Assembly: GCA_028286645.1 (NCBI GenBank)
Contig: JAQBRF010000002.1
Location: 58,518-122,517, forward strand
DNA: 64,000 bases
From: Candidatus Nomurabacteria bacterium
GTDB taxonomy: Bacteria; Patescibacteriota; Minisyncoccia; Phycocordibacterales; UBA5272
Reading direction: 5' to 3'
The notes beneath the pieces are model-generated. The model did not search any database. It saw nothing but the letters and a program-made list of their open reading frames with translations, and had not been told where the DNA came from. Positions 1 through 59,780 of the stretch are shown here, in pieces. The position numbers and the translations under genes are program-made. The number at the start of each line of letters is the position of its first letter. Position 1 is the stretch's first letter.

Positions 1-794
1 CAGCAAACCACATACCTCTTAAAAGGTTGAACTCAGAAAGATTATCAGAAAGTTTTGGTAAATTGTTCATTTGATAGACCTCATCAATTCTTCCTGTAAG
101 TAAGCTTTTTTGCTCAGGCGTGAAATTGTATAACCGATAAAATTCATATTCAGAAGATTCAGGAAACCAATTTAAATGCTCTATCATTCCGCCAATGTCA
201 TACCCAAGAGGACCTGAAAAAGAGTCTTCAAAATCTATAACCCCATTTGGATATATATTAAATGGTCCAAAATCGCCATGACAAATAACGAAAGGTATGC
301 GTTCTAACTTCCTTTGAACCTGTGTATAGGCTTCTAGTATTTTTTCTTTGTATTCTGGCAGTTCTTCACAGAGAAGATCTAAATGAATTGCTTTTGTAAA
401 AGCATACCATTTCTTATTATTAGTACACGTTTTCAGCTGCGCTTCTGTGAAGCGGACACATACTTTAATGTAGTTATCAAATGTATCATCAGAAATAACC
501 CCATTTAAAGTGACTTCGTCTCTAAATATAAGGCCAAAATGTTTTTCTCCAAGTGATTCTTCTATGTAGAATTCCATTCCATCTATCTTTCCTTCTTCTA
601 TAAGTTTGGGCACTGGGAAACCAAAAGATTCTAACTTTTTATGAATTACTAAATTCTTTTGAACTTTTTCTTGATCCCCTATTCTGAGGTACTTGAGGCC
701 GGAAATGTATATAGCAGAATCACCACCACGCTGAGTATCTACATGCACGTACTTTTCTCCTTTGAGAGACAGTTCTTTTGGGAATTCCATTCAT
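1..794 (-). CDS. Phosphotransferase enzyme family protein (aminoglycoside/choline-kinase-like), C-terminus runs off window start
   Basis: Reverse-strand translation from ATG ~794 gives MNGIPKELSLKGEKYVH... containing the HGDFGPFN catalytic-loop motif typical of APH/ChoK-like kinases; open to position 1. Confidence 0.6.
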
Positions 795-900
795 AAAGTA
801 TACCCTACCCTGCTCCTCACTATAATATGTGTGCTTTAGTGAATACTGTAGGAACCACTCACTTTAATAATATGGTAAAATTACCCTATCTATAATCACC

Positions 901-1572
901 ATGAAAATAAAGGATCAATACAACGAAATAGGTAAAAATTATTCCCACGATAACCAAACTTTTTTTAAAGAAAAGGGAGAAGTAGATTTCGGGCGACAAT
1001 TCATTTTAGACAATCTTAAAGAAGTCGAGAGTAAAAGCATCCTAGATGTAGGCTGCGGGGCGGGAGATGACATCATGATTTATGAAAAGATGAAGTTTGC
1101 AAAAGTTTTCGGTGTTGACCCTTCTCGACTTATGATTGATCAGGCACTTGGAAAGATCGCGCATAAAGAAAACGTTCAGATCGGTGACTATGAGAACCTT
1201 CCCTTCCCTGATAACAGTTTTGATTATGTCGTGGGGAGATTCTCACTTCATTATGTAGAAAATATAGATAATGCTTATAAAGAAGTTCTCCGTGTACTTA
1301 AACCTGGAGGCCAATTTATAGCTATTGCGGATCACCCGATGGCTGATGCCTTCGAGAAAAAGCGGTATGAAAAAAATGGGAGGACATACATAACCATTAA
1401 ACTATTTGATGGCACAATAGAAGTTACATTCCCTCTACATCTACTGGGTGAATATATATCTGACTACTTTTTAAAATCCTTTAGATTAATTCAATTCAAG
1501 GAGCACGTCGGATCAGAAAGAGAGGTTACTCACGTCCCAAATGCATTTGGCATTACCGCTAAGAAGATTTAA
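901..1572 (+). CDS. Class I SAM-dependent methyltransferase
   Basis: LDVGCGAGDD glycine-rich SAM-binding motif; TATAAT 6 nt upstream of ATG. Confidence 0.8.
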   Translation: MKIKDQYNEIGKNYSHDNQTFFKEKGEVDFGRQFILDNLKEVESKSILDVGCGAGDDIMIYEKMKFAKVFGVDPSRLMIDQALGKIAHKENVQIGDYENLPFPDNSFDYVVGRFSLHYVENIDNAYKEVLRVLKPGGQFIAIADHPMADAFEKKRYEKNGRTYITIKLFDGTIEVTFPLHLLGEYISDYFLKSFRLIQFKEHVGSEREVTHVPNAFGITAKKI

Positions 1573-2269
1573 TCAATTCAAAAGCATAGAATGCTCTCGG
1601 GTCATTTTCTAATTCTCTCTTTCCAATTAACTTATATTTAAATCCTGAACTTGTAGCAAGATTTAGCATATCGTCAATATTCCCAAAGTTAGATTGGGAG
1701 ATATATATCCTTCCAGTAGGTTTAAGATGTTTTTGGAATCCTTCAAAAAGTTTTTTGTGTACTACCAGATTTGTATCTTTTATAGTTTGTTCAATGAATT
1801 TCCTATTTTCATCTTTAACTTTTCTGTCACTAAAAGGAGGATTGCATGTAATAACATCAAATTTCTCGTTCTGTTTTAGCGCAGAGAATACATCAGAGAC
1901 TCGACCTTCTGTCACATTCTCAACATTAAATCTTTTAGCATTAATATTCACCGTTTCAATCGCTTTTGGATTGATATCTAATGCTACTACTTTCCTAGCA
2001 CCCTTTAGAGCAGCAAACACTGCGATTACCCCTGAACCGGTACATACATCCAGCACTTCATCTGTAGGATGTATGACCATATTATTAACTATTTCTTTAC
2101 TATCATCATGCGGCCAAAATACACCTTTCAAAACTCTAAAGGTTTTATCAAGATAGGCCACCTCCACTCCTTCTTCGGGAATATTCTCTAACTTTTTAAA
2201 TATATTTTCTCGCTCTCTTTCTATTCTCTCCTGCTCCTTATCCGTAAGCCTCTTTATTTCTAGTTCCAT
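1559..2269 (-). CDS. Methyltransferase small-domain protein (HemK/RsmC-like N-methyltransferase)
   Basis: VLDVCTGSGVIAV SAM motif followed by NPPF catalytic motif. Confidence 0.65.
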   Translation of the reverse strand: MELEIKRLTDKEQERIERERENIFKKLENIPEEGVEVAYLDKTFRVLKGVFWPHDDSKEIVNNMVIHPTDEVLDVCTGSGVIAVFAALKGARKVVALDINPKAIETVNINAKRFNVENVTEGRVSDVFSALKQNEKFDVITCNPPFSDRKVKDENRKFIEQTIKDTNLVVHKKLFEGFQKHLKPTGRIYISQSNFGNIDDMLNLATSSGFKYKLIGKRELENDPRAFYAFELIKSS

Positions 2270-2311
2270 TGAAAATGTATCAGCGTCAATTAATGTGAAT
2301 CTAAATTGAAT

Positions 2312-3421
2312 CTATTTTTCTGATTTACTAATTTTCCCATTAATAAACTGCGCTCTTATTGGTAACGGCATAAAATTGTGGGAATCATCTACAGTATACG
2401 CGCTTGTAATCCCTTCAAAAGAATTAAGAGATTTTAAATATTTTGTAACTTCTTCTTTAGTGGTTATGTTATTGTCGGCCAAGTTCTTTAGCATTAGCCC
2501 TATGTCAATGGCAAAAGATTCAAATCCTGCGGGTTCTCTGTTGTTTCTTTTGATATAATCATTTTTAAACTCTGTAGCATATTCTCCTGTATTAAATGGA
2601 GTGGTCATGGTATAAACTTTTTCGGCAAGACCTGCAAGTGCTTCCGGAGTCCCTGGATTAAGAAGTACTCCCAAGACATCATAAATTGGAAGATTTATCC
2701 CTGCTTCTTTAGCTTGGACCATTATGCCTTTCCACTGGCTGGTCGGTATAGCTATAATCCCGATCACCTGTGGATTTGCTTGTTTAACTTTTGCTAGTTG
2801 GGTCCGGAAATCTGTATCTGTATCTTGAAATGTCTCAATAGTAACTTTTATTCCGGCAGAATTCAGCTTGGGAACAATCAAATCCGCAGTTGATTGGGCT
2901 CCTTCGTTTTTGGCCTGGAGTAAAGCAACGTGAGTTATTTTTTGATCAACTATTCTCTCTACAAAGAAATCAGCGAACTGTTCAGCTGTCCAGAATATTC
3001 TATATGCATAGTCGTTGTTTTTACTTGTTGCATTCATTGCAGCAACAAATGAAATAATAATTGGGGTTTTACTTTGCTGCGCCAAAGGGATTATGGGTAC
3101 GGTTGCTTTTGATATTGCTGAAACAAGAATATCGACACCATCTACTGTTGTAAGCTTTTGAAACGCAGCCACTCCACCTGCAGCATCTCCTTTACTGTCT
3201 TCATAAATAATTTTAATTTTCTTGTTTCCTCCCACAACAGAATCCATCCCCTTTTTAAAATACTCTCCGTATTGTGCGGTGGGTCCTGTAAAAGGAAGAG
3301 ATGCTCCGACCACAAGAATATCGTTACCTTTGCTTTCTCTAAAACCCAATAATTTATAAATACTAAATATTATAACTACCAACAAAACTAACATTAGAAT
3401 GTATTTGGTTGTTTTATTCAT
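2312..3421 (-). CDS. ABC transporter substrate-binding protein, LivJ-like (branched-chain amino acid type)
   Basis: N-terminal TM/signal anchor, VVGASLPFTGPTAQYGEYFKKG motif typical of type-I periplasmic binding proteins. Confidence 0.75.
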   Translation of the reverse strand: MNKTTKYILMLVLLVVIIFSIYKLLGFRESKGNDILVVGASLPFTGPTAQYGEYFKKGMDSVVGGNKKIKIIYEDSKGDAAGGVAAFQKLTTVDGVDILVSAISKATVPIIPLAQQSKTPIIISFVAAMNATSKNNDYAYRIFWTAEQFADFFVERIVDQKITHVALLQAKNEGAQSTADLIVPKLNSAGIKVTIETFQDTDTDFRTQLAKVKQANPQVIGIIAIPTSQWKGIMVQAKEAGINLPIYDVLGVLLNPGTPEALAGLAEKVYTMTTPFNTGEYATEFKNDYIKRNNREPAGFESFAIDIGLMLKNLADNNITTKEEVTKYLKSLNSFEGITSAYTVDDSHNFMPLPIRAQFINGKISKSEK

Positions 3422-3569
3422 AAACCAAAGTATATCACTTCTGCGGTACGGATTATTCTGTCTAAAAGCTATTGATTTATATGCCTAAATAATCTGTATA
3501 CTACAGCGGACGACTTATTTTCTTAGCTTATTTTCAATCTGTAGGAAATAGAAGGACTCTTGTGGGAGG

Positions 3570-3788
3570 TTATAGGAACTTTTGTATTAACCAACTAATT
3601 AAAAATGTAACTACAAATATCCCCACAGCCCACGGTAACGCAATTATCCAAGCAAAAGAAGGAGGGTTGCTAGTTATAGGATCATTTCCTGAGGCTATGT
3701 GGTCGGCAATTCTTTTATATTCAATAAAATAGATGCTAACAAATGTCAGCAATGCTATGACCAGAGAAATAATAAATGATATTTTCAT
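3570..3788 (-). CDS. Small membrane protein (track ORF trimmed to ATG following conserved TATACT box)
   Basis: Two hydrophobic segments; conserved promoter/leader module A immediately upstream. Confidence 0.4.
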   Translation of the reverse strand: MKISFIISLVIALLTFVSIYFIEYKRIADHIASGNDPITSNPPSFAWIIALPWAVGIFVVTFLISWLIQKFL

Positions 3789-3837
3789 AATTAAAAGTAT
3801 ATCAGGCCTTACCTCTCTCCTCCACACTATATTTGGC

Positions 3838-3937
3838 CCATTCGCGACTACACTCAGGACACTAAAATTTAAACTTCTGTGGTGGACTCCATTATTACTT
3901 AGGAGCGAGTTAGAAAATAAGTTACTCCTCCTCCTGT
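3838..3937. repeat. Element C plus truncated element B
   Basis: cattcgcgactacactcaggacactaaaatttaaacttc matches 7175..7213; followed by gtggtggactccattattacttaggag. Confidence 0.7.
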
Positions 3938-4498
3938 TTACACTGTATCTTTAATAAATACTTTCATCACGATTATAAACAATGTGTGAAGTACCACTGG
4001 TACAACCAAACTACCAGTAACGTAAAAACTGAATCCCAAAAACATTCCTGCCATAAAAGTCATAGTAACGAGTTTCCAGTTCCATTCAGTAAGTCGAAAG
4101 CCTTTTGCTCCGTTTAAAACATGGGCAAGTCCAAAAAATAATGAGGACAAAATTATCGAATTAGGGGCGTCAAGGATTGAATAAAAATATGTCTGTACAA
4201 ATCCTCTGAAAATAATTTCTTCTGGCACTGCAATTAATAGACCTGCGTACAAAATAATTATATGTAATTTAGATAAATTTTTTCTATTTAAACCAATAAC
4301 CCCGAATTTCAAAAAGTAATTTATAGCAAAAAAGATAATGAAAGCACAGATTGTTATTGGAAGTAAAAACACTAAATCTTTCGTACTAAACATAAAGAAA
4401 ACTTGTGGTGATTTCATAAAAATGAAAAAATACACGCAAAAAAGAACATATATAGAAACTATAAAATTATGATACCTAGATTTAAATAGAGCTTTCAC
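3938..4498 (-). CDS. CPBP family intramembrane metalloprotease (CAAX protease / Abi-like)
   Basis: EEIIFRG ... FGLAHVLN motifs in multi-TM protein. Confidence 0.7.
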   Translation of the reverse strand: MKALFKSRYHNFIVSIYVLFCVYFFIFMKSPQVFFMFSTKDLVFLLPITICAFIIFFAINYFLKFGVIGLNRKNLSKLHIIILYAGLLIAVPEEIIFRGFVQTYFYSILDAPNSIILSSLFFGLAHVLNGAKGFRLTEWNWKLVTMTFMAGMFLGFSFYVTGSLVVPVVLHTLFIIVMKVFIKDTV

Positions 4499-4613
4499 TT
4501 TAGTGAATAAAGTATACCAGTTCCACTCTATCTACAATTCGCTAAGGATATGCAAATGTTGTAACTAAAAATTCCCTGTTGATTCAGGAGATTTTTAGTA
4601 ATTATTCATTGCT

Positions 4614-4700
4614 GTGGTGTAGTGGACTCCATTATTTACTTAGGAGAAAGATGGGTTAGAAAATAAGCAGTACCCTTGTAGTAGGTTATAGGAACTGAGA
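4614..4700. repeat. Intergenic repeat element B (~85 bp) copy
   Basis: gtggtgtagtggactccattatttacttaggag...agaaaataagcagtacccttgtagtaggttataggaactgagat; near-identical copies at 7244..7326 and 9449..9528, truncated or degenerate copies at 3878..3937, 3541..3585 and 5359..5440; always directly 3' of a minus-strand gene stop. Confidence 0.8.
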
Positions 4701-4707
4701 TGGGGGT

Positions 4708-5322
4708 TTACCAAGGTCTCGGGCGTTCCCTTTTAGCCCGCGCTTCAATTTGTGGAGCCTCTTTGATTAAATCTTCTTCGGATTTACCGGACACTTCTAG
4801 ATACCGCTGCTTTCTCCAGTATGTTGCCCATTCCATCAACCAGTCGACCTCCTTAACAAACCGATCTTCAGAAAGCGTTGCGTCCTTGAAATCTTTCCTA
4901 AGAACTAGTTGAGGCATACCCGAGTTTAAAGGTTGTTCATTTATATAGAAATAACCCTCGCCAAGCGTAGAAGGCTCACGATCTCCCGCCCTTTTAACTT
5001 CATCAAAAAATTCTTTTCTTTTAATCATGAGGTGGGCATCATTTACTACAAGACCAAACACTGAAAACTGTCCATCGTTTGCGGAGTAACTGAACTCGGC
5101 AGCTCCGAGTATCACTTTGAAATCCTGTTGGTCTTCTTTAAGAGAGACGTTATCTCCTATTTTCTTCCCATAGGCGGTTACATATTTTTTGGCTTCTTCG
5201 TTTGTCATGTGTTTTGGTACATTATTAGATGTTTGTATATTAAATCCTTTTTTATAATACATAAAGCCTGCACCTATAAGGAGCAATATGGCCACAATTA
5301 TTAAAGACTTTTTCATATTCAA
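4708..5322 (-). CDS. Secreted/anchored hypothetical protein, paralogue of 6467..7123
   Basis: N-terminal signal anchor; shared C-terminal ...EE(D/E)LIKEAP...R(P/K)xxW* with 6467..7123. Confidence 0.55.
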   Translation of the reverse strand: MNMKKSLIIVAILLLIGAGFMYYKKGFNIQTSNNVPKHMTNEEAKKYVTAYGKKIGDNVSLKEDQQDFKVILGAAEFSYSANDGQFSVFGLVVNDAHLMIKRKEFFDEVKRAGDREPSTLGEGYFYINEQPLNSGMPQLVLRKDFKDATLSEDRFVKEVDWLMEWATYWRKQRYLEVSGKSEEDLIKEAPQIEARAKRERPRPW

Positions 5323-5441
5323 TCAAAGTATATCAGTAATTAACCGCATTCTTCACTGTGGTTAGTGGGCTATAAAGAACTTCTTTATTGCTTAGGAACA
5401 TCCTCTCATCACCCTATATTTTATGTAGGACATAAACAGGA

Positions 5442-5672
5442 TTAGAACTCATGAAAAAGAGAATAGAGTAAATACCCTGCTGAAACAATTCCTACAATTA
5501 CCGCAATTATCATCAAACTTATATCCCAAATTCCATTACAAGGAAATGAATTTAAAGAGTTTTGGGTGCAGGGTACTACCTTATCGATTATATGTCTTGA
5601 GAAGAGCGCCCTATTACCGATGATAAATAAAATAGCTGAAACTACAAGACTAATAATTGATATTTTTATCAT
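5442..5672 (-). CDS. Small membrane protein
   Basis: 76 aa, two hydrophobic helices, own upstream AAGTATATC box. Confidence 0.4.
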   Translation of the reverse strand: MIKISIISLVVSAILFIIGNRALFSRHIIDKVVPCTQNSLNSFPCNGIWDISLMIIAVIVGIVSAGYLLYSLFHEF

Positions 5673-5776
5673 ATTTGAAGTATATCAGTTCGCTAACGTT
5701 GATTGCTAAGTATCGAACACAATCTTTAACCCTTTGGCTACACAGTAAAAATTAGAGCAGTCCCACTATGGCAGTA

Positions 5777-6022
5777 TTAATTATCAAGTACTTGAGAAAT
5801 TAGCTCGATGAAGTCCTTAGCCCTCTTTTTTTGCTCAACCGATAAACTTTCTTCTTTTATTAATTCTTGCAAATAAAAACGGACGCCCATTAAAGCTTCA
5901 GATCCTAATGAAGCACCTTCAACAACTGTGTTAATTTTATTTTGCCAAGCGTTTAAACCTTTTTCTCCCAATTCTGCGGTAAAGTTTCTAACGTCATCAT
6001 AAAAGTTACTTGGAAGAGTCAT
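5777..6022 (-). CDS. Small hypothetical protein
   Basis: 81 aa ORF with upstream AAGTATATC box. Confidence 0.4.
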   Translation of the reverse strand: MTLPSNFYDDVRNFTAELGEKGLNAWQNKINTVVEGASLGSEALMGVRFYLQELIKEESLSVEQKKRAKDFIELISQVLDN

Positions 6023-6125
6023 CCAAGAAGTATATCAGTTCCCAAGGAACTATTACCATATAGAAAACCAAGATTTTTAATAATCCTTGGATGTCATTAT
6101 GACTTAGACAGAAGTTTCGTGAATT

Positions 6126-6359
6126 TTAATGGTAAACACCGTTTTTGATAAACCACAGGAACCACACTAAAAAAATAAGTACGATCACGATAAGCGCTCG
6201 TCCCAACCACACAAGCCATATAGGGTGATAAAAGATTAGCAATATTGCTAACCCTGCCAAGACAAATGCAATGGGAACAAATGGAAAGGTATTCCACCAG
6301 AACGACCATGCCGCAACTGCAAATAGAATAATTATAGTAATTAGCACAGATTTTGACAT
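6126..6359 (-). CDS. Small membrane protein
   Basis: 77 aa, two TM helices, module A upstream. Confidence 0.4.
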   Translation of the reverse strand: MSKSVLITIIILFAVAAWSFWWNTFPFVPIAFVLAGLAILLIFYHPIWLVWLGRALIVIVLIFLVWFLWFIKNGVYH

Positions 6360-6466
6360 AGCGTTAATTTTGTATGCTATAAGTATACCAGCTCCTACCT
6401 CTCCTCCATATTATATTTAATGTAGTTATACCTGTCCCTCTCTCTAGTTAGCAGCTGGAAGGAAAA

Positions 6467-7123
6467 TTACCATGATTTTGGTCTATTCTTTAGCATGAAT
6501 TCATTTATTCCAGGAGCTTCTTTAATAAGTTCTTCTTCTGTTTTTGCATTTATTTCATTAAATCTGTTTACAAACCAATAATCTGCATCTGAGAGGAGCC
6601 ACCCTATTTGAATTTGTAGGTTTTTCCCATTAGTAATAGGCGCTGTGTACGTTTTTGTTAGAAGGAGCACATCCGGATTCAAATCAAAAAGTGGCTCGCG
6701 CAAAAGTTCAAATTGAGCCTCGCCATACATCATGGTGGTATATTCACGCTGTCCAATACGCACTAATCGGTCCCATAGCACGGGATATTTACTTAGTGTT
6801 TTGATGTCATATCTTACTAATCCTGAGACCAATAATTGCTTTTTTTCTGCATCATACCGAAAGATAGCTCCTTTTACGCGTACTGGCAGACCCTTTGGAA
6901 GGTCACTTTCCAGAGAACCGGTAATGTTCAAGGGAGCAGCATTAGATTCTTTAATCCATAGTTTTACTATAGCTTGAGCATCTTCAATTGTTAGTGTCTC
7001 AGCTTGAGATTGTTGAGTTATATGCTGTAATTCGAGTTTTGGAATAGGTGTGCTAGATCTTTTATAAAAATAAAAGGCGCCTAACATTAATATAATTATT
7101 ACAATTATTCCTACTTTATTCAT
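6467..7123 (-). CDS. Secreted/anchored hypothetical protein, paralogue of 4708..5322
   Basis: Signal anchor; conserved C-terminal segment shared with 4708..5322. Confidence 0.55.
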   Translation of the reverse strand: MNKVGIIVIIILMLGAFYFYKRSSTPIPKLELQHITQQSQAETLTIEDAQAIVKLWIKESNAAPLNITGSLESDLPKGLPVRVKGAIFRYDAEKKQLLVSGLVRYDIKTLSKYPVLWDRLVRIGQREYTTMMYGEAQFELLREPLFDLNPDVLLLTKTYTAPITNGKNLQIQIGWLLSDADYWFVNRFNEINAKTEEELIKEAPGINEFMLKNRPKSW

Positions 7124-7243
7124 TTCATAAGTATACCAGCACTTACCCTATGCTGCTTCACGCTATATTTAGTCCATTTGCGACTACGCTCAGGACACTA
7201 AAATTTAAACTTCACTTCGTTCAAATAAATTAAAGTGTGTGCT

Positions 7244-7326
7244 GTGGTGGACTCCATTATTTACTTAGGAAGGAAGTGAGCTAGAAAATAAGCAGTATCC
7301 TTGTGGTAAGGTATAGGAACCGAGAT
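7244..7326. repeat. Intergenic repeat element B copy (part of the full B-C-A module 7127..7326)
   Basis: Direct sequence identity to 4614..4700; followed by element C (7175..7213) and promoter module A (7127..7170). Confidence 0.8.
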
Positions 7327-7769
7327 TAATCAGAAAAAGTAGAAAAGAAAGAAATCTCTCCTGTTTTCTTATTTAGCGTTAACCCCTGATACTCAGCTGG
7401 AATTCCTTCAGATTTTGGAGATCGTTCCCCCAGCTGTTTCTCAAGTTGACCAAGCAATATGTCGCCGCCTCTAAATAATCTAAATTGACTATTAGAGATA
7501 CTCGCACCTAATGGGTTCAATTTTGTACTTAGTTCATGGATAAACCCTTCCACATCTTCTGTTTCTAAACCAAAAGATAGATGGGCCGCTCCTGCAACTT
7601 GAACTCCAGGATCATAAGCGGTCAATACGGCACAAGACCCTCCCGGTAAAACCTCTAATGTTTCTACTTTGCTATTTGGACCTATGACTTCAATAGAGTT
7701 AGTTAGTACTTCTATTGATCGTCCCTGTTCACTTTGATTTTCAAAAAATTGTTTCGGCTCTTGTTCCAT
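7326..7769 (-). CDS. Hypothetical protein, possible CheD-like fold (GGSCAV...AGAAHL)
   Basis: Track ORF trimmed to the ATG 8 nt after the TATACT box; GGSCAVLTAYDPGVQVAGAAHL resembles the CheD Cys/His motif region (weak). Confidence 0.45.
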   Translation of the reverse strand: MEQEPKQFFENQSEQGRSIEVLTNSIEVIGPNSKVETLEVLPGGSCAVLTAYDPGVQVAGAAHLSFGLETEDVEGFIHELSTKLNPLGASISNSQFRLFRGGDILLGQLEKQLGERSPKSEGIPAEYQGLTLNKKTGEISFFSTFSD

Positions 7770-7836
7770 CCCTAAAGTATACCCTACTCCTCTCCACACT
7801 ATATTAGTGTGCTATGTAGAGATTACACGAATTGCA

Positions 7837-8367
7837 TTAACTAAAAAGGGAATTGTAAGCTGATTCTAAAGAAGCATTTCTATCTGGATAAATATCAAAA
7901 TAAGGAAAATTGTTTTTAGATGCCTCTTGTTCTATCTTTTTACTTTTTTTAATAAAGTATTCTGGAAGAGTGTTTTGCTTTTCTTGTGATAAGTTACTTA
8001 CCCAGTCTGACTTAGGGTCACTCTTTTTTATATCTTCCAAAGTTATGTTGCTTGTACCCAAGAAACAACACCTCAATTCTATCTTCTCTTTAAGAGATGT
8101 GACTTGCTCGGGGGTAAACAGGTCTCCTTCTATAACATAATCCTCATATTTGTTTTGAAGAATTTTCAAAAATTGCAGTAAATAAGGAAAAAACACTTCT
8201 GCCTTTTTATCTTCTTCCAAAGCTTTAAGCCCTAGTTGGGTGGGTGAAGAATCTAAAAGATTCCTTATTACATCAGTTGAAATATTAGAAATATGCTTGC
8301 GTTCAAGCATGAGAGCCGCCAACGTACTCTTTCCGACTCTTGCTGTTCCTCCAATAAGATAAATCAT
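7837..8367 (-). CDS. P-loop NTPase / kinase-like protein
   Basis: Walker A GGTARVGKST near the N-terminus after trimming the track ORF to ATG at ~8367. Confidence 0.6.
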   Translation of the reverse strand: MIYLIGGTARVGKSTLAALMLERKHISNISTDVIRNLLDSSPTQLGLKALEEDKKAEVFFPYLLQFLKILQNKYEDYVIEGDLFTPEQVTSLKEKIELRCCFLGTSNITLEDIKKSDPKSDWVSNLSQEKQNTLPEYFIKKSKKIEQEASKNNFPYFDIYPDRNASLESAYNSLFS

Positions 8368-8474
8368 TGCATAAGTATACCCTACTCCCCACCACCCTAT
8401 TGAAATACATATAAGGATGTGTGCCCTTCGGACTACCTTAGGACAATCAATTTTCAACTCAGACGATATTAGGA

Positions 8475-9413
8475 CTATTTTATTTTCTTTTTGAGAAATT
8501 TCAGAACATGAGTATCTGTATATGTAGCTATATCCAGTTCTTTCGAAAAGATATTGATTAGATTTTTCTTTTCTGCTAGTGAGATTTCATTACTGCCAGG
8601 AACATGTACAGAGGCAAGGGCGATATTTTGGTGTTCTTCAATAAAAGAACGTATTTCCTCTCCTCCATCTTTAAAAAGTCCATCGTCAAGAATGTCCTGT
8701 CCATCGTACGAAGCTCGGACAAGCGCATTAAATACTTGATCTTCGGGAACGCCGGAATAGACATGTATCTTGTGTATCAAAATATCTATAAGCATTCTTC
8801 CAATATCATACGTTCTATAATATCCTTCTTCTATCATAGAGCTATTTCCTGATCGTCTAAGATATTCTTCCAGCACTTTATCAGCAATCTTTTCTACCAG
8901 CCCTTCGTTAAAAGCAACACGTGTCCTATTAAAATTTTCATCATTACTAGTCAAACCAGAGACCTCAGCTGAGATTGATGTACCGTCCTTTTCCTCAAAA
9001 TCCTCATACCCGGAAAATTGAGTAGTATGTACCTGTTCGTGAATGAGCAGTTTGAGGGTTATTAATCTCTTTCTCAACTTCTCATTCAAGATAGGTGTGA
9101 TGAATTTGAAATTTGCAGGATTGAAATGCAATGCCGATCGTTCCCCCATTTTTTCCCCAGTTGATTTGTCTACAATAGGCTCTATACCCGCTGTTGCCGC
9201 AAAATAAAATGCGTCATAGAAATATTTTATGTCTTCCTTTTTCACAAATTCCATATCCTTCTCATCTAGTCCCGCTTTCTTATATATTTCTTCGAATATG
9301 GTGCGCAGTAGATCAAAATCCACCCTCTCCAAGTCCTCTTGAATCTTTTCCTTGGATCCTTTAAAAACTTCCTCTTTTGTTTTTTCCCAAAGACTTTTAC
9401 TTTCCATCACCAA
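8475..9413 (-). CDS. HExxH-motif protein, putative zinc metallopeptidase (HEQVHTTQ, DUF4157-like HExxHxxQ pattern)
   Basis: LLIHEQVHTTQF motif; acidic cytoplasmic-looking protein. Confidence 0.5.
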   Translation of the reverse strand: MVMESKSLWEKTKEEVFKGSKEKIQEDLERVDFDLLRTIFEEIYKKAGLDEKDMEFVKKEDIKYFYDAFYFAATAGIEPIVDKSTGEKMGERSALHFNPANFKFITPILNEKLRKRLITLKLLIHEQVHTTQFSGYEDFEEKDGTSISAEVSGLTSNDENFNRTRVAFNEGLVEKIADKVLEEYLRRSGNSSMIEEGYYRTYDIGRMLIDILIHKIHVYSGVPEDQVFNALVRASYDGQDILDDGLFKDGGEEIRSFIEEHQNIALASVHVPGSNEISLAEKKNLINIFSKELDIATYTDTHVLKFLKKKIK

Positions 9414-9448
9414 AGTATACCTTACTCTCCTCTATACTATTTGGTACC

Positions 9449-9528
9449 GTAGCGGACTCCATCAGTTAGGAGCAGAGCGACTTAGAAAATAAGCACCACC
9501 CTGGTGGTAGGTTATAAGAACTGGGATT
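9449..9528. repeat. Intergenic repeat element B copy
   Basis: gtagcggactccatcagttaggag...agaaaataagcaccaccctggtggtaggttataagaactgggatt. Confidence 0.75.
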
Positions 9529-9611
9529 AAAAAATAGAAACTATTTAATACTAAACTTTAGTCTCTCAGATTTTTCATTCATATAAATATCTATTTTAAA
9601 CAGTTGCAAAC

Positions 9612-10145
9612 TTAAATAAACACATTTAAATATTTAGTAACCGCAAGAAATTCATCATAAAGATTATGCTCTTTTAAAACAGAAATAAATAAAGGATGTG
9701 TGTACCCATCAGCAATAAATTCATGAATATCTTTCCTGTAATTAAAGAATGTTAACCCATCCTTCTCTATCCCGTCAGGAAAGATATCTTTTATCTTTTC
9801 AAAAAAAGTTTTTAGTTCTTGTGTAACTTCTTGTCGAAATTCAATTGCATGAATAATTTCATGCCTCTTTGTTATTTCAGATGTACCAGAGTAAAATAAT
9901 AATGCGTCAAGTCTATCTACATAAGCTCCATTAGCTGTTTTACTAGGAGCTGTATTAAGGTAATAGGCTGGAATGTCGCGCTGTAAATTAAAACCAAATT
10001 CCTTGGCTAAAGTTACAGCATTTTCTACTTTCATTATCTGCATCTTAGTTTGAGTTCCGTCTTTCTCAGTCAAAGAGAAAGTATCTCCTTCTTTTTTCCA
10101 AGGGACTAACGGGTCTCTCACTAATAATGTGGGTTGTTCTTCCAT
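9612..10145 (-). CDS. HExxH-motif protein, putative metallopeptidase-like
   Basis: RHEIIHAIEF motif; track ORF trimmed to ATG after the TATACT box. Confidence 0.5.
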   Translation of the reverse strand: MEEQPTLLVRDPLVPWKKEGDTFSLTEKDGTQTKMQIMKVENAVTLAKEFGFNLQRDIPAYYLNTAPSKTANGAYVDRLDALLFYSGTSEITKRHEIIHAIEFRQEVTQELKTFFEKIKDIFPDGIEKDGLTFFNYRKDIHEFIADGYTHPLFISVLKEHNLYDEFLAVTKYLNVFI

Positions 10146-10190
10146 CTCCAAAGTATACCCTACCCTGCTCCACACTATGTTAAAAGACTC
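10146..10190 (-). promoter_or_regulatory. Conserved promoter/leader module A (gene-sense ATATAGTGTGGAGCAGGGTAGGGTATACTTT-N4-ATG)
   Basis: Same ~45-bp sequence found upstream of the genes starting at 794, 3788, 6359, 7123, 7769, 8367, 9413 and 10145; TATACT ends 7-9 nt before the ATG. Confidence 0.6.
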
Positions 10191-10327
10191 AGGTGCGCCT
10201 TACCGAACCTTCATTCGTTTCACTCCTTTTGGTTTTAAGAACCCACGGTTCTCAACGCTCGTAAACTCGCTGCTCTCCTCCACATGAAAACTCCCGTTTT
10301 CTTGACACCTTTCCCACCAGTAGACAC

Positions 10328-10369
10328 AAGTTCAAATCCCGATAGGTATACCTATCGGGATTTGAACTT
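10328..10369. repeat. Perfect 42-bp palindrome built from two inverted tRNA-His 3'-end-like halves
   Basis: AAGTTCAAATCCCGATAGGTATACCTATCGGGATTTGAACTT equals its own reverse complement; half-site cctatcgggatttgaac differs by 2 nt from tRNA-His cctaccgggattcgaac; a further gtgtgcctaccggga copy follows at 10373..10390. Confidence 0.8.
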
Positions 10370-10572
10370 TCTGTGTGCCTACCGGGACTTACTTGGAACA
10401 CCATAGAAAAACAAATAACTTCGTAGAAAAACATCTTTGTTTCTGACATATATAAAGATTACATTTCTAATAAGCCCCAATTTATATGAGTCCTCGCCCA
10501 TTTGTCGTAAAAAGGTATTACCGTATCTGATATTAAACACCATTCGTATCTAAATCTACTTACTGCTATTAT

Positions 10573-11514
10573 TTGCTTATGCAGAAACGACATCATTTTA
10601 TACCCGATTCCTATCAGAGAAATTTTATTAACAATGAGGGAAAAGTATGGGTATTAGATAAAGAAAAAAAACTTTTTCAGACTAATCCTACAAACATCTT
10701 TGCGGAGGCGTACTTCTATTTACTTCCTGGCACTACCGAGGAAGAACAGTTGCGAGTAGAAAATCTGTTAGGTCTTATCGAAACCGACTTCGGGGCAATC
10801 TATAAGGAGAAAATTAATATAGGGCTTCAGATGACGCAAATGGAAAAAGGCAAACTTTCATACTTTGTTGCATGTATGTACCTGCGGACTAAATTTATGC
10901 GTAATCAGAATCTTGATATGTATAAAAAAATGAGGTCTGCAATGCAGGAGTGGGGAGAACATTATAAAAACATGTCTGATGAGCAGAAAGAAACATTTGC
11001 TTCTCTTCACCATTCAAGTGATAGTGCGACTATTACGATAGATGACATGGACTATGCTATCGAAAATAATAATGAAATTCATACTGAACAACTTATATCC
11101 CTTCTTCCAGAGATTGCTGATATTTTATTTAATATGGAGTAGTTTTTTTTGAGCCCTCAGAATACCAACAAAACTTTTATAAGTTCTGATAATCCTTTTT
11201 GTATGATAAGACCAGAAGCTATTGCAAAATTTGGTCTCAATAAATTTGGAAGTCTACCTGGTCTAAAGGCTAAAGACGTAGAAGTTTCACTTCCTCTTTC
11301 ATCTACTAAAATGCTATTTATGAGTTGGAACTTAAAATCAGAGGTGTTCATGAAAATACCAGATGATAATGTCGATGTATTTAATGCTCGAAGTAGATTA
11401 CATGCTCATGATAAATTAATAGCCTCGAATAAAGAGGTCCTTCAGGAGATTGTTGATAAATCAGACGGAAAAGATAAGAACGATTTTAATATGTTTGATT
11501 TCGAAACTAAGTAG
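10573..11514 (+). pseudogene. DUF4238-family gene split by an in-frame stop (ORFs 10573..11142 and 11149..11514)
   Basis: N-terminal HHFIPDSYQRNF...VWVLDK matches the DUF4238 H-x-x-P-x-x-Y...F signature; the second ORF continues directly after a stop and contains SDNPF; combined length ~310 aa is typical for the family. Confidence 0.5.
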
Positions 11515-11733: not shown

Positions 11734-12074
11734 ATTTGCATTTTGGAAGCAAAAAGCCCCCAAGGTTGACGACCTTTCGGCCGCCCATATCCGTTTCCAG
11801 ATACGTCTCACTACAAACAAACTCTTGGAACCGTAATTACTCAATGTGATAATAGTTTTGCAACTACTTGTTATGGAAACCATGGGGGCCTACCGGGAAT
11901 TTCTTCGACAAGTATTTGTTCGCCGCCGCTCACAAATCTCGCCTCCCGCCCCTCGCCCATTTTCCTTGCTAGAAAAATATGGCTGTGGTCTTCGAATCCG
12001 GACGTAAACAAAGCAGTTTGTTTACTTAGGCACACCAAATACAAAAACGGCCATAAAGACCGTTTTTGTATTTG

Positions 12075-12179
12075 GTGTGCCTAGTCGAGACACCGGTCGA
12101 ACTTCTCGCGAAATTGCAGAGATGTTTTTAAGCACTATCCCGCAGGCAACGTCTCGACGTCCTGATGTCCCTACTACAC
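12075..12179. repeat. ~105-bp direct repeat copy 1 (begins with tRNA-His 3'-end-like gtgtgcctagtcgagacaccggtcgaac)
   Basis: About 80% identical to 13223..13327; preceded by a perfect 20-bp-stem hairpin 12029..12081. Confidence 0.75.
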
Positions 12180-12560
12180 AGCAGAATCTTCGTCTGCAGT
12201 AGTTCGCTTCTGTCTTTTTTCTTCTTGATAGTCATTCCAGAGAAGCAGCAGAAAGTCACTCATAGCTGCGTCAGCTTGACGAAGTTCTTCTTCGGTGAAG
12301 TCCGGGAAGATCTCGCGAATCACTGGTGCGACTTCCATATCTTCGGGTAGGCGTTTGGGGTGCATGGGGCGATGGGAGGCTCTGAGGTTATTAGGCAGAG
12401 CTAACGCTATCCATAGCACGATATTGACAAATGTCCAAAATATGATTGGATATAAGTAAGTAGTTCTTGTCCTCAGTATTTGGTTGCGGAATGAAGTTCG
12501 AGACTTAAGCAGTTCGCGAATTTCTCCCCTAACCAAGACGAGGTCAGCATGCAGATCCAC
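12174..12560 (-). CDS. Hypothetical membrane protein in GC-rich insert (alternative to or overlapping the 12549 ORF start)
   Basis: One predicted TM helix; long ORFs in GC-rich DNA can be spurious. Confidence 0.3.
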   Translation of the reverse strand: MDLHADLVLVRGEIRELLKSRTSFRNQILRTRTTYLYPIIFWTFVNIVLWIALALPNNLRASHRPMHPKRLPEDMEVAPVIREIFPDFTEEELRQADAAMSDFLLLLWNDYQEEKRQKRTTADEDSAV

Positions 12561-13013
12561 GAGAAGATTGGAAAGTTGGGTGCATCGGTATTCCTGATGT
12601 CAATGATCCCGAACACTCCCGAAGGGAACGAAGCGATCGACACTATGCTTGCGAAAGCGGGCGCGCAGATGCTGCTGTGGTGCAACGCGCTTTACTATCC
12701 GACGATGGAGTTCGCCGAGTGGGTGCATCAACAAGAAACTCGCATTGAGGAGCGTTTCAAGGCAAACCCTGCTTTGGATCGCATGAAAAAAGAGGCGGAT
12801 TTCCTTCTCGAAGCCCACTGGGATCAGGAGTTAGAAGAAGCTCGCGAGGAATACGCAAACGATCCCGAGCATCGAGCTATGGTGGCCCGAATCAACGAGA
12901 AGATCGAGGAGCGGCTCGCCGCGGATCCGGAACTACGTCGGGAGTTTGAGGAAGGACTGGCAGCACATATCGCTCTTGTCTGCGAACAAAGCGCCCGCAA
13001 ACGGATTCACTAA
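12549..13013 (+). CDS. Hypothetical Ala/Glu-rich protein in GC-rich insert
   Basis: GC3-rich codon usage unlike the surrounding genome; SD-like ACGAGGT 5 nt before the ATG. Confidence 0.4.
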   Translation: MQIHEKIGKLGASVFLMSMIPNTPEGNEAIDTMLAKAGAQMLLWCNALYYPTMEFAEWVHQQETRIEERFKANPALDRMKKEADFLLEAHWDQELEEAREEYANDPEHRAMVARINEKIEERLAADPELRREFEEGLAAHIALVCEQSARKRIH

Positions 13014-13222
13014 CATTCTCCTTCTGGGAAAACACTTCAGGCGGCCCTCCCGGGCTGCCTTTTTACTTTTGATGCCAAATAGAGAAAGTATCCGTCAAGA
13101 ACACACTTTGCAAAAGTGTACAAGGCTGGTCGAGGAGAAAACGCTTACTCTGTAAGTCTCATTTGCAATGCAACAAATTACTTTCTCCGCAAGACTACAA
13201 AAATTGCCAAATTTTCCTATTA

Positions 13223-13327
13223 GTGTGCCTACTCGGGACACCGGTCGAACTTTGAGTGAAATTGCCGAGTTGTTTTTAAGCGTCATTCCGCAGCCAACAT
13301 CTCCACGTCCTAACATCTCTACTCACT
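13223..13327. repeat. ~105-bp direct repeat copy 2
   Basis: gtgtgcctactcgggacaccggtcgaactttgagtgaaattgccgagttgtttttaagcgtcattccgcagccaacatctccacgtcctaacatctctactcac. Confidence 0.75.
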
Positions 13328-13875
13328 AACAGCGGCCCTTCAAAATTGACAGCTTGAGTATGCGTGTTAGGCTGAAATTGGATATCGCTTTACATATCCT
13401 CATAGTCGAGCCCCATGAACTCCGCAGCCCGGAGTGCCAACGACCTCCTATGACCGCCATTGCGGCTTAGCCCCTTCCGAATCGGAGGGGCATTTTTGTT
13501 TCTCAGAGTTGCCTCTCGGTCCCAATATGTAACCGTTACGCGCTTTGAGGTTTTGTCTATGCTAAATGTGGTCGATATTATTAGCCAAGACCAAGAACAC
13601 ATATGGAAACACTAGGAGACCGCTTCCTTGCGCCAACCGCTCGGGAGAACCTCTTTGAGTCAATAGACTATCTTCACGAATCGATTCGTAATGCACGCGA
13701 ATGCGTGTACGACATCGAGCGAAGCATAGACGCTTCGCTTGATGAGATTCGAGGAAAGAAGCCTGAGGCAGCTCAAGAGAAGAAGTAGGGTGTAGCTAAT
13801 ACACCCCTCTCACGAAGACGAATATCGTGGGGGACATGGATTTAAGTTGCAGAAACGCAATGCGATTTGAATCTG

Positions 13876-13949
13876 TGTGCCTACCGGGATTCGAACCCGG
13901 ACTGAGGGCTCCACAAGCCCGCGTGCTAACCATTACACTATAGGCACCA
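13876..13949 (-). tRNA. tRNA-His (GTG)
   Basis: Reverse complement GGTGCCTATAGTGTAATGGTTAGCAC...cuuGUGgag...GGTTCGAATCCCGGTAGGCACA; cloverleaf with G-1; no encoded CCA. Confidence 0.85.
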
Positions 13950-22350: not shown

Positions 22351-22437
22351 GGAGGAGTGGCAGAGTGGTCGATTGCACCTGTCTTGAAAACAGGAGTCTG
22401 AGTAATCGGACCGTGAGTTCGAATCTCACCTCCTCCG
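22351..22437 (+). tRNA. tRNA-Ser (TGA), long variable arm
   Basis: GGAGGAGTGGCAGAGTGGTCGATTGCA...cuUGAaa...GAGTTCGAATCTCACCTCCTCCG. Confidence 0.85.
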
Positions 22438-22528
22438 CAAAATAGGAAGTTCGTAAGAACGACCATATTTTGCGCAGTGCATTTCAAGGAGCGTAATCGC
22501 GACTATGAATATGCCTCCGCAAGATTAG

Positions 22529-23077
22529 GTGTGGTATTATTTAAAGACCAATATGTCATTTTTAGTTTTGGCTTATCCAAAGATATCAAAAGAAGATTTT
22601 GATTTTATACAAGCATACCGAAGGGAAAACGATCTTAAATTCTTTAATATTGTAAGCCCACATTTTACAATAGTCTTTTCGACAGATGGTCTTACAAAAG
22701 AAGAATTTGTAAATGAGATAAAAAATAAAGCTAAAGGGTTACAGAAGTTTAATTTTCATCTTAAGGTTGCAACAATAAATAAAGATAGCTTTGATTCTTA
22801 TTATCACGAATTTTTAGTTGCTGATACTGGTAATTCTGAAATAATAAAAATACATGACAAATTATACTCAGGCATACTTTTTAAAAATTTAAGGTTTGAC
22901 ATTGATTTCATACCGCATATCGGGATTGGAAATTCAGAAAATATTTTAGAATCAAAAAAGAGAGTCGACGAGTTAAATAAAAAAGATATATCCATTTTAG
23001 GCACGATAGATAAATTAGACATAGTCGAGTACACCGATAATAAAATAGAGACCCTCGAAGAAGTTTTACTGGATTAA
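22529..23077 (+). CDS. 2H phosphoesterase family protein (LigT-like)
   Basis: Two H-x-T/G-x motifs (PHFTIVF, PHIGIGN) about 90 aa apart. Confidence 0.6.
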   Translation: MWYYLKTNMSFLVLAYPKISKEDFDFIQAYRRENDLKFFNIVSPHFTIVFSTDGLTKEEFVNEIKNKAKGLQKFNFHLKVATINKDSFDSYYHEFLVADTGNSEIIKIHDKLYSGILFKNLRFDIDFIPHIGIGNSENILESKKRVDELNKKDISILGTIDKLDIVEYTDNKIETLEEVLLD

Positions 23078-23253
23078 TCTTTTTCATAAGCGTTACCGAA
23101 TCTCACCTCCACAAAATCGCGAGCGTATTCGCGACTAGGTTTTGTGGAGTATATTCAAGGAGCGTACCCGCGACTATGAATATGCCTCAACTGGCAGTTT
23201 TGAAAGACGGGTATTAAAATATCTTGTTTTAAGCTACATTTCAAAACGGAAAA

Positions 23254-31881: not shown

Positions 31882-31990
31882 TGTTGAACTTACTACACAA
31901 CACTACAATTTAGTGCAAACTATGTCAAGTCGGACTTTATTATTTATTTTCCTGGAAAGTGAAGTAAGTCCACGAGCATGCTTATAAAGA
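31882..31990 (-). promoter_or_regulatory. Conserved ~100-bp upstream module (TTGACA-N17-TAGTGT promoter plus TTTCCTGGAAA palindrome), copy 1
   Basis: Matches 32471..32580: ttgaacttact...acactacaatttagtgcaaactatgtcaa...ttttcctggaaa. Confidence 0.6.
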
Positions 31991-32470: not shown

Positions 32471-32580
32471 ACTAGCCTCACGGTTGGTTGAACTTACTTA
32501 ATAACACTATAATTTAGTGCAGATTATGTCAATATAACTTTATCTAAGTATTTTCCTGGAAACTGACAGCTGAAAACTGT
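32471..32580 (-). promoter_or_regulatory. Conserved upstream module, copy 2
   Basis: See 31882..31990. Confidence 0.6.
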
Positions 32581-41891: not shown

Positions 41892-42692
41892 TTACTTTAC
41901 CGCGCCGATGTGCTTGTAGGTGCTCTTGTCGTCGATGCCTTGCTTGGCGGCGACGCGGAACGACCACTGTTGCTCCGTCTCACCGTTGTTCGGCGCGACG
42001 ATCTCCACATCCGAGCAGTTCGCGGGTTTGCCGCTGATCTGCTTGGTTGCGTAGCAGTGCATCGGGCTTTGCGCCGACGAGTTCGGGTGGTACCAGCCCC
42101 AGAAGGTGCTGGCGTTCGCCGGAAACGACGGAAGCGGAGCCGAGCTCGAAGCAGTCCTTGCGGGCTGCACTGCCGGCGGAGATGCCGGACGATTACCGTG
42201 GGTCACGGTGGGGCGTTTGCACCCGAGAACCGCGGCACAGATGGCGTCAGACGTCATCTGTTGCTGCGGAGTGGAAGCCTTGAGCGCGAGCGCGTTCACG
42301 CTTCCTTGAAGGCCTTCAAGTGAGGCCTTGGTCGCGTCGGCGGTTTTCACCGCGGCTTCCGCTTGTTTTTTCGCGGTCGTCGCGTTGCTGTCCACGGCCT
42401 TGAACTCGTCGCTCGCGAGGGCCAGTGTTTTGGCTTTCTCGGTGACGCCTGCGACGGCGTTGTCGAAATTGCTATTGCTGGGCGTCGTGAACGCCAGGAG
42501 GATCGCGAGGATCATTGCGCCTACGCCGGCCGCGATCGCCAGATTCGCGCGAGTGTGGTCCGGGGAGGGAGCCAGATCTGAGGCGGCGTAGATCTTGCCG
42601 TCGTGGCCTTGAACGAAGACGCGCGTGTCTCCGGCCGCAACCATCTTAGTCACTTCTGCGTCGGTAAAGCCTTTCGGTTGGCGATTAGCCAT
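41892..42692 (-). CDS. GC-rich Ala-rich membrane-anchored protein with conserved Cys-containing C-terminal domain
   Basis: GC3-rich codons; SD GAGGTG; N-terminal cytoplasmic segment then TM helix (LAIAAGVGAMILAILLAF); C-terminal W.W...PM.C...K.I...C..V.AP..GET..QW shared with 42881..43963. Confidence 0.55.
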   Translation of the reverse strand: MANRQPKGFTDAEVTKMVAAGDTRVFVQGHDGKIYAASDLAPSPDHTRANLAIAAGVGAMILAILLAFTTPSNSNFDNAVAGVTEKAKTLALASDEFKAVDSNATTAKKQAEAAVKTADATKASLEGLQGSVNALALKASTPQQQMTSDAICAAVLGCKRPTVTHGNRPASPPAVQPARTASSSAPLPSFPANASTFWGWYHPNSSAQSPMHCYATKQISGKPANCSDVEIVAPNNGETEQQWSFRVAAKQGIDDKSTYKHIGAVK

Positions 42693-43963: not shown

Positions 43964-43982
43964 TCTATCAAGGTATGAGTAC

Positions 43983-59778: not shown

Positions 59779-59780
59779 GG

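Follow-up and report, generated by a model that had tools for sequence, protein, structure and literature searches.

An array of small genes with repeated spacers downstream of tRNA-His in Candidatus Nomurabacteria: a candidate cassette locus

Genes of the array

The subject of this study is a series of ~15 unrelated small genes with repeated DNA between them, which lies downstream of a tRNA-His gene in a 64,000-nt stretch of Candidatus Nomurabacteria (Patescibacteria) DNA. This whole stretch is called the window; negative positions lie to the left of it. The window has an overall GC content of ~36% and contains polA, dnaA, tyrS, murE, pilB and the genes of a PBP1A-family penicillin-binding protein and a VirB4-type ATPase. 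The housekeeping set and the VirB4-type ATPase are as expected for a Patescibacteria chromosome. We lean towards the view that the series is a cassette array anchored at tRNA-His, i.e. the distal part of an insertion hotspot, which would have been built by insertions that duplicate their junction and may serve in part as a store of defence genes. Because an independent assembly, the Logan assembly of run SRR13312974 (L013; labels of this form designate the loci with which the window was compared), is 100% identical across window positions 1-10357 and extends 1.5 kb further to the left, the repeats described below are not a one-off assembly artefact.

The region 3570-10145 is occupied by eleven co-oriented minus-strand open reading frames (ORFs), g1 to g11. 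A preliminary description, made from the sequence, had placed eleven minus-strand genes between a substrate-binding protein gene and ~10.2 kb, and both the gene number and the neighbor, which matches the Pfam family Peripla_BP_6, were as described. The genes are as follows.

9612-10145, minus strand: g1, 177 aa, HEIIH motif, without family
8475-9407, minus strand: g2, 310 aa, HExxH motif and a downstream E
7837-8367, minus strand: g3, 176 aa, P-loop with Walker A GGTARVGKST
7326-7769, minus strand: g4, 147 aa, from a rare family in which Cys46 and His63 are invariant
6467-7123, minus strand: g5, 218 aa, N-terminal membrane anchor
6126-6359, minus strand: g6, small membrane protein, orphan
5777-6022, minus strand: g7, 81 aa, orphan
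5442-5672, minus strand: g8, small membrane protein, orphan
4708-5316, minus strand: g9, 202 aa, paralogue of g5
3938-4498, minus strand: g10, CPBP/Abi intramembrane protease family (Pfam PF02517, Rce1-like/CPBP, E 3e-18)
3570-3788, minus strand: g11, 72-aa membrane protein, stop codon within the 5' part of a copy of element B (see below)
2312-3421, minus strand: g12, substrate-binding protein that flanks the array
running off the left window edge, minus strand: g0, APH-family kinase, 287 aa, with module A (see below) in front

Only g10 and the flanking g12 could be assigned to Pfam families, and nine of the 11 proteins lacked a Pfam family above threshold; most array proteins are orphans, and a PADLOC scan of them yielded no match. 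Of the labels of the preliminary description, the CPBP protease corresponds to g10, the two HExxH proteins to g1 and g2, and the paralogous pair to g5 and g9 (blastp E 1e-19 to 1e-24). The HExxH motif and the downstream E of g2 are invariant across 19 homologues, and g2 is a putative gluzincin-like metallopeptidase; its predicted structure (pLDDT 79) had no fold match in the PDB. In sequence, g2 is identical to the protein JWN37_96 from a Candidatus Nomurabacteria MAG, encoded on a contig of 251,735 bp. For the proposed P-loop kinase g3 the Walker A motif is present, and the kinase matches in NCBIfam were weak and all below threshold. The proposed similarity of g4 to CheD was weak as well, with an hhalign probability of 48%; the g4 family is rare with 13 representatives among 1.84 billion proteins. 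For zeta-toxin and DUF4157, which had also been suggested, there was no match. PDB sequence searches with g4, g7 and the g5 family gave no matches. The g2 and g5 families were not found in viral contigs, and the g5 family was not found in plasmids.

Repeated promoters and spacers

The preliminary description had pointed out three repeated elements, i.e. module A in front of start codons and the elements B and C in the spacers. A search for module A with a 27-nt pattern and up to 3 mismatches gave 5 matches, all on the minus strand between 796 and 10177, compared with 0 in 100 shuffles. A profile detected five canonical copies (E 2e-11 to 2e-8) and three variants (E 0.005 to 0.09) in the window, and a ninth copy 140-175 nt to the left of it. 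Thus the module is a genuine repeat.

10145-10187, minus strand: canonical A, promoter of g1, profile E 2e-11
9407-9450, minus strand: canonical A, promoter of g2, abutting element B
8368-8409, minus strand: canonical A, promoter of g3
7769-7811, minus strand: canonical A, promoter of g4
792-831, minus strand: canonical A, before g0
7126-7169, minus strand: A-variant, promoter of g5, TGn-extended -10, joined to element C
6381-6417, minus strand: A-variant, upstream of g6
3794-3833, minus strand: A-variant, promoter of g11, joined to element C

The cores of A have a mean pairwise identity of 83%, and the copies include the ATG and the codon after it (ATGGAA). The 3' half of A consists of TATACT followed by 6-7 nt and the ATG (TATACTTT-N4-ATG). 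Because ~15 genes outside the array show the same arrangement, with TATACT 6-9 nt before the ATG of a long ORF, among them dnaA (54623), pilB (44307) and a 363-aa gene (52965), the 3' half of A is the ordinary, apparently leaderless gene start of the organism. The claim that A is a special leader fails for the generic 3' half; the 5' half (TAGTGTGGAGnAGnGTAGGG) is confined to the array locus within the window. The 5' half occupies the -35 to -11 region of promoters that have no TGn extension.

All array genes have the -10 box TATACT, preceded by TGn or GGTAGGG. Genes without A have the same box with the TGn extension (CTGATATACTT), and in g7 and g8 CTGATATACTT is located 6 nt before the ATG. 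The distance from the -10 box to the start codon is 6-7 nt except for g9 (10 nt), g10 (12 nt, GTG start) and g6, the sole array start with a 22-nt leader. From this placement of the -10 box, which is that of housekeeping genes, it follows that each array gene is most likely an independent leaderless transcription unit. A scan for canonical -35/-10 promoters was not above shuffles. The leaderless layout recurs at many genes of the window, essential ones among them, e.g. at 54623 (dnaA), 44307 (pilB), 52965, 21464, 25036 and 30921; there the -10 box precedes the ATG by 6-9 nt, which leaves no space for a ribosome-binding site. Judging from promoter placement, leaderless mRNAs thus appear to be the norm in the genome of this Nomurabacteria bacterium; the parts of the literature that were searched held no description of this, and one paper touches on leaderless translation in passing.

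The profile of element B matched three full copies with E-values of 1e-25 to 1e-28 and two partial ones. A further fragment that had been claimed at 5359-5440 gave no match even at E<10. Element C was present in the two copies described before. Two more elements, D and E, were found upstream of g1, where they are followed towards tRNA-His by a split DUF4238 gene.

9444-9530, minus strand: element B, full, E 2e-25, with a terminator-like hairpin and T-run at 9494-9509
7237-7329, minus strand: element B, full, E 4e-28, begins at the g4 stop codon
4611-4703, minus strand: element B, full, profile match
3876-3921, minus strand: element B, partial, E 4e-9, followed by C (3838-3877) and an A-variant
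3542-3580, minus strand: element B, partial (5' part), E 0.002, in front of g12
4510-4703, minus strand: spacer with B, then a weak terminator at 4574-4589, then the g10 promoter
7175-7213, minus strand: element C, contiguous with the A-variant of g5 (block of C and A at 7126-7216)
3838-3877, minus strand: element C, contiguous with the A-variant of g11
8415-8461, minus strand: C-like element in the g2-g3 spacer, with the tRNA-His-end-like GGGCACACA (4 mismatches to the tRNA end)
10264-10378, minus strand: element D, contains a perfect 42-nt palindrome at 10328-10369
10193-10328, minus strand: element E, conserved and non-coding, between D and the g1 promoter

The two blocks of C and A-variant are 85% identical over 85 nt. 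Every copy of A, B and C has the same strand and falls between about -500 and 10190; the other 54 kb contain none. As entire units, the intergenic regions are mutually homologous, and they are confined to the locus. An intact terminator-like hairpin with a T-run is seen only in the B copy at 9444-9530. Folding of B on either strand was no better than that of shuffles (z -0.8 to +1.3), and B as an attC-type hairpin site of an integron was rejected for this reason. A terminal inverted repeat between the 3' end of A and the 5' end of B (GGTAGGGTATAC and GGTAGGTTATAG), picked up by eye, was rejected as well, as it was not above background.

The palindrome of D consists of a sequence like the T-loop and acceptor of tRNA-His and its inverse. 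A second copy of D is located 503-617 nt to the left of the window (79% identity over 117 nt, E 9e-21), and the two copies bracket ~11 kb and 15 genes. Both are detected by the tRNA-His profile with E-values of 0.002 to 0.013. Element E is 81% identical to a sequence in L014 (1136-1272 or, more widely, 1132-1278) and 74% identical to one in L039, where it follows a genuine tRNA-His; L020 and L031 have partial copies. This conservation of 74-81% is seen between genomes whose adjacent g2 gene is 74.5% identical in DNA. There are two small hairpins in E, and in one of them a compensatory change was noticed by eye; E could be a small RNA or a recombinase-binding arm. In Rfam only tRNAs reached the gathering score; there was nothing credible at E<=5 in 3400-10600 and no family for the elements A to E.

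The tRNA-His gene and the loci of relatives

The organizing feature of the locus, which the preliminary description had missed and which lies beyond the interval it covered, is the tRNA-His gene, along with copies of the 3' end of this tRNA. At the tRNA-His 3' end a hypervariable region starts, and the array forms its distal part.

13875-13947, minus strand: tRNA-His (GTG), by ARAGORN and Rfam, same strand as the array
10370-10387, minus strand: exact 18-nt copy of the tRNA-His 3' end (TCCCGGTAGGCACACAGA), direct repeat with 13872-13889; a 15/15 core match that extends to 18 nt
11888-12175, minus strand: tRNA-His 3' end at a displaced position, together with its terminator palindrome (12027-12083) and the DNA that follows, by self-blast

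The tRNA-His gene is 3.7 kb away from the array. Near copies of its end, defined by 2 to 4 mismatches in 15 nt or by an exact 9-nt core (12083), lie at 13236, 12083, 11897, 10359, 8432 and -522, all on the strand of the tRNA. The DNA between tRNA-His and 10387 is a stack of segments delimited by such copies. The region 11888-12175 is 79% identical over 199 nt to the tRNA-His 3' end and downstream DNA of L035. Between copies of the tRNA-His end also lies the DUF4238 gene, which is split in two ORFs (10573-11142 and 11149-11514) and therefore is likely a pseudogene, consistent with a decaying insertion. A ~1.2-kb segment of ~50% GC (12072-13323) is bracketed by 104-nt direct repeats (12072-12175 and 13220-13323, 81% identical), which contain tRNA-His-end-like sequence. 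It has the overlapping orphan ORFs 12174-12560 (minus strand) and 12549-13013 (plus strand) and is probably a separate foreign insertion.

Synteny was assessed in a set of 28 loci, i.e. the window, L014 and the loci of 26 species-representative genomes that carry this tRNA-His. For the two genes preceding tRNA-His, homologues are present at 16-18 of the 28 loci, compared with 0-4 of 28 for the ORFs within 5 kb downstream. Relatives thus share the genes upstream of tRNA-His and not those downstream.

Directly after tRNA-His, L014 and L015 carry a g2 homologue of 78-82% amino-acid identity, and the tRNA-His that precedes it in L014 is 93% identical to that of the window. Five co-oriented genes come after the g2 homologue of L014; none of them is related to a gene of the window, g2 being the only gene common to both loci. 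Three spacers of L014 contain remnants like the 3' end of its own tRNA-His (p <= 0.012 against shuffles). Several spacers of the window were recovered next to tRNA-His in other genomes. The segment 12083-11888 matches DNA after the genuine tRNA-His of L035, and the segment 10328-10194, i.e. element E, matches DNA after that of L039 and also L014. The segment 8461-8419 is 86-87% identical to DNA ~50 nt after the tRNA-His of L022 and to a spacer of L014. The segment 4616-4513 (4510-4617) is 77-80% identical to DNA upstream of the first gene after tRNA-His in L020 and L015. Because this same spacer precedes g10 in the window and the g2 homologue in L015, spacers and genes assort independently. 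Together with the missing synteny this agrees with the accessory, cassette-like character that the preliminary description had ascribed to the locus.

In L017, L026 (same contig as L005) and L034 a gene for a large serine recombinase of ~540 aa overlaps the tRNA-His 3' end. Elsewhere in Patescibacteria, homologues of g2 follow tRNA-Glu (L002) or lie within recombinase-flanked elements (L005, L010). At least 8 of the 26 related genomes (L016, L020, L023, L029, L031, L033, L039 and L041) have a second, inverted copy of the tRNA-His 3' end 30-100 nt downstream of the first, and the two form a long palindrome with the intervening terminator; the window sequence 10328-10369 is a collapsed, perfect 42-nt version of it away from the tRNA. 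The palindrome might act as a terminator, a recombination site or a cruciform.

A second tRNA gene of the window has a similar neighborhood. tRNA-Ser (22351-22438) is followed by a single gene of the 2'-5' RNA ligase family (22529-23077), which is flanked by ~95-nt direct repeats (22420-22517 and 23097-23188, 76% identical) starting in the T-loop of tRNA-Ser. By its layout this site appears to be a one-gene insertion with the same architecture as the array at tRNA-His.

Origin and possible function of the array

If the array was assembled by insertion, its genes would have arrived singly or in small groups, each time through Campbell-type insertion of a small DNA circle. The inserting circle would carry a copy of the junction, consisting of the tRNA 3' end, a terminator and an outward promoter, and the crossover might be made either by a trans-acting recombinase or through homologous recombination in the junction repeat of 100-200 nt. 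Every insertion would duplicate the junction, leaving a scar with a weak terminator behind the cassette (B, C, D) and a promoter (A) before the next gene. Deletions between repeats would leave stacked scars free of cargo, such as the 5' part of B, the 3' part of B and C in one spacer. A number of features agree with a tRNA-borne island: the locus is adjacent to a tRNA, there are direct repeats of the tRNA 3' end (13872-13889 and 10370-10387), and variable content is joined to a conserved flank.

The cargo would be at least in part protective, given the immunity-like g5 and g9, the CPBP/Abi protein g10 and the APH kinase, and the array may be a store of acquired defence genes that are expressed independently. 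g5 and g9 belong to a conserved family. Betaproteobacterial homologues of g5 (55-65% identity) are sited in two type VI secretion loci with the same gene order, i.e. VgrG, DUF4123, a protein of 461-476 aa with an AHSEGG motif and then the g5 homologue. The two AHSEGG proteins are 67% identical to each other and have weak matches to alpha/beta-hydrolases and lipases. In-frame codons upstream of the betaproteobacterial g5 homologues encode signal peptides, and Patescibacteria members of the family have a membrane anchor. Position and location of the g5 homologues are those of a cognate immunity protein, from which we infer a role against a lipase-type effector of type VI systems. The pair of a 461-476-aa AHSEGG protein and a 175-aa signal-peptide protein (L048 8451-10528, L050 8496-10528) is uncharacterized. 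It is a candidate for a new effector-immunity family, the immunity half of which may have spread to Patescibacteria. The toxin/immunity content postulated in the preliminary description is thus supported in part, by g5, g9 and g10, and most of its functional labels were not confirmed. The array genes other than g5, g9 and g10 matched no immunity family of Pfam and gave no PADLOC match. In the part of the literature that was searched, no paper joins Patescibacteria with orphan immunity.

Several results weigh against an origin by insertion at tRNA-His and a protective cargo. A recombinase was not found when ORFs of the window were scanned with Pfam and NCBIfam (48 ORFs, including most of those with at least 150 aa outside the array), hence the integrase gene that belongs inside an island is missing among the scanned ORFs. 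The profiles of A, B and C match nothing in ~40 related loci. The A pattern had 0 matches in contigs of one genome per species (the source genome not being among them), and its six matches in JGI metagenomes are chance hits in unrelated DNA of 41-59% GC. No empty site was found in relatives, and the GC content of the array is that of the genome. The main copies of B and C are not significantly similar to the 3' half of tRNA-His (p 0.15 to 0.87 against shuffles), nor does the tRNA-His profile reach B or C. Significance was reached or approached by two short copies of the B 5' part left of the window (p 0.006 and 0.065) and by a piece downstream of g8 (p 0.03). A tRNA origin of B and C is suggested by the two short copies and by position. 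The model does not account for the conserved 5' half of A. Finally, a link to protection exists for just 3-4 of the ~15 genes, and g2 (HExxH) and the weakly CheD-like g4 might act as enzymes or toxins and not in immunity. As a separate matter, the idea that A is the sequence following tRNA-His in relatives was dropped, as its profile matched at 0 of 26 tRNA-His loci.

An integron-like origin would regard the ~200-nt unit of B, C and A as a dedicated site of the attC/attP type, used by a recombinase encoded elsewhere, with single-gene circles being excised and re-inserted at the tRNA-His end. Co-oriented, unrelated and mostly orphan small genes with homogeneous spacers from stop to start codon speak for it, as do the spacer that is joined to different genes in different genomes, the single-gene insertion with tRNA-end repeats at tRNA-Ser and the use of tRNA-His by serine recombinases in relatives. 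Yet the scanned ORFs of the window include no recombinase, B lacks hairpin potential by the z-scores given above, and no R''/R' motifs (RYYYAAC/GTTRRRY type) were seen on reading the sequence. The inverted repeat between the ends of A and B is not above chance, and the cassettes have their own promoters, unlike integron cassettes. We consider a dedicated site of this kind unlikely.

The array might also be an ordinary chromosomal regulon, with the repeats as a shared operator/promoter and a 3' element that are kept alike by selection or gene conversion without any mobility. This would suit the 5' half of A, which covers exactly the -35 to -11 region of promoters lacking TGn, as well as the identity of the A cores and the genome-like GC content. 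However, it leaves the tRNA-His end copies, the bracketing D repeats and the spacers shared with tRNA-His flanks of other genomes unaccounted for, and likewise the complete lack of synteny in relatives. Furthermore, no DNA-binding protein was found among the array products. We judge a regulon to be unlikely as well.

There is very little to recommend a non-autonomous mobile element (a miniature inverted-repeat transposable element, MITE, or Correia-like) with an outward promoter, inserted between existing genes. A repeated intergenic element of 90-200 nt carrying a promoter and a faint inverted-repeat resemblance of its two ends, read by eye, would agree with it, but terminal inverted repeats are not significant and target-site duplications were not seen on reading. 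Moreover, the copies have a single orientation and are gathered in one stretch of 11 kb, the remaining 54 kb being free of them, and they run through ATGGAA, which is not expected from random insertion.

That A is no more than the general promoter of the organism and B its general terminator, an outcome against which the preliminary description had set its own view, is next to negligible: the spacing of -10 box and ATG is generic and one B copy has a terminator-like hairpin with T-run, but most B copies do not fold, and neither B and C nor the 5' half of A occur in the other 54 kb of the window or at the related loci, so that this explanation holds for the widespread 3' half of A alone and is refuted for the rest.

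Among known systems the recombinase-associated acquired interbacterial defence clusters (rAID-1) of Bacteroidales (Ross et al. 2019, bioRxiv 10.1101/471110) bear a close resemblance. Like the array they are co-oriented and consist of many small and mostly unrelated genes with repetitive intergenic sequences. They contain orphan homologues of type VI immunity genes with closest relatives in other taxa, to which the candidates g5 and g9 would correspond in the array. In contrast to the array, which has a genome-like GC content and no recombinase gene among the ORFs scanned in its 64 kb, rAID-1 clusters have a gene for a XerD-like tyrosine recombinase at the 5' end and a skewed GC content. The array differs further by its tRNA anchor, by repeats with tRNA-end copies and leaderless promoters, by only 2-3 immunity-linked genes and by the other host phylum.

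Tandem genomic islands at tRNA and tmRNA genes (Islander/TIGER work; such tandem arrays are mentioned in PMC9580842) share with the array the insertion at a tRNA 3' end, tRNA-end direct repeats as boundaries, stacked segments, variation from relative to relative and integrase-bearing elements at the same tRNA in some relatives. Yet classical islands have at least 5 kb and an integrase, whereas the units of the array are single genes of 0.2-1 kb for which no integrase was found; moreover, the 100-200-nt junction repeat of the array includes a promoter that abuts the next start codon. Taken together, the array is most like rAID-1 clusters and tandem tRNA islands, but the recombinase that characterizes both is lacking among the ORFs scanned.

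Other systems are further removed. Sedentary chromosomal integrons, such as the repeat array of Vibrio cholerae, are long co-oriented arrays of small orphan genes with a homogeneous repeat. The array resembles them in its co-oriented small orphan genes separated by a homogeneous repeat and differs in that no intI or attI was found in the window, that attC-type hairpins are missing and that the cassettes have their own promoters. In the minimal mobile elements of Neisseria and the variable surface protein loci of Mycoplasma genes are exchanged between conserved flanks or conserved 5' regions. The former rely on transformation with flanking-gene homology and the latter on site-specific inversion that moves one promoter. 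As in these systems, unrelated coding regions of the array share a conserved upstream region; unlike them, every gene has its own promoter and all are co-oriented.

Some further features of the window may be recorded here. The region 42000-44000 has a GC content of 58-59%, overlapping ORFs on both strands without Pfam matches and no Rfam match, and its minus strand carries two TTGACA-N17-TGTATACT promoters of textbook form, near 42767 and 43988. Tandem repeats at 41323-41670 have a 36-nt register and 108-nt higher-order units (84-90% identical) and lie inside a repetitive, surface-protein-like gene of 724 aa with a DUF11 domain. Immediately upstream of murE, ~520 nt are flanked by an 81-nt direct repeat (31883-31962 and 32487-32566, 83% identical), which may reflect a further small insertion or duplication. 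The region 55277-63845 encodes a VirB4-like ATPase (CD1110 family), an SLT transglycosylase and large orphan proteins and looks like a type IV secretion or conjugation-like module.

The similarity of g5 and g9 to betaproteobacterial type VI proteins points to transfer across phyla and suggests that these epibionts encounter contact-dependent toxins. With leaderless expression, a promoter of 35 nt is enough for any inserted ORF to be expressed, and the locus is a clean illustration of this. Going beyond the favored reading, and with considerable reserve since we regard it as rather doubtful, one may speculate on a cassette-capture system of Patescibacteria with leaderless gene expression, either free of an integrase or served by one in trans. 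Its site would be the 100-200-nt junction of tRNA end, terminator and leaderless promoter, and single genes, taken up e.g. via natural competence, would be stitched in at tRNA-His (and tRNA-Ser), so that arrays of orphan immunity and resistance genes would protect these surface-living symbionts against the toxins of bacteria around them. If true, such a system would be a functional analogue of integrons or of rAID-1, and the logic of its site would be another one. Patescibacteria have very small genomes, which are thought to have little room for accessory DNA, and their gene gain and defence are little understood. A tRNA-anchored array of self-expressed single-gene cassettes would provide such small genomes with a compact route of gene gain.

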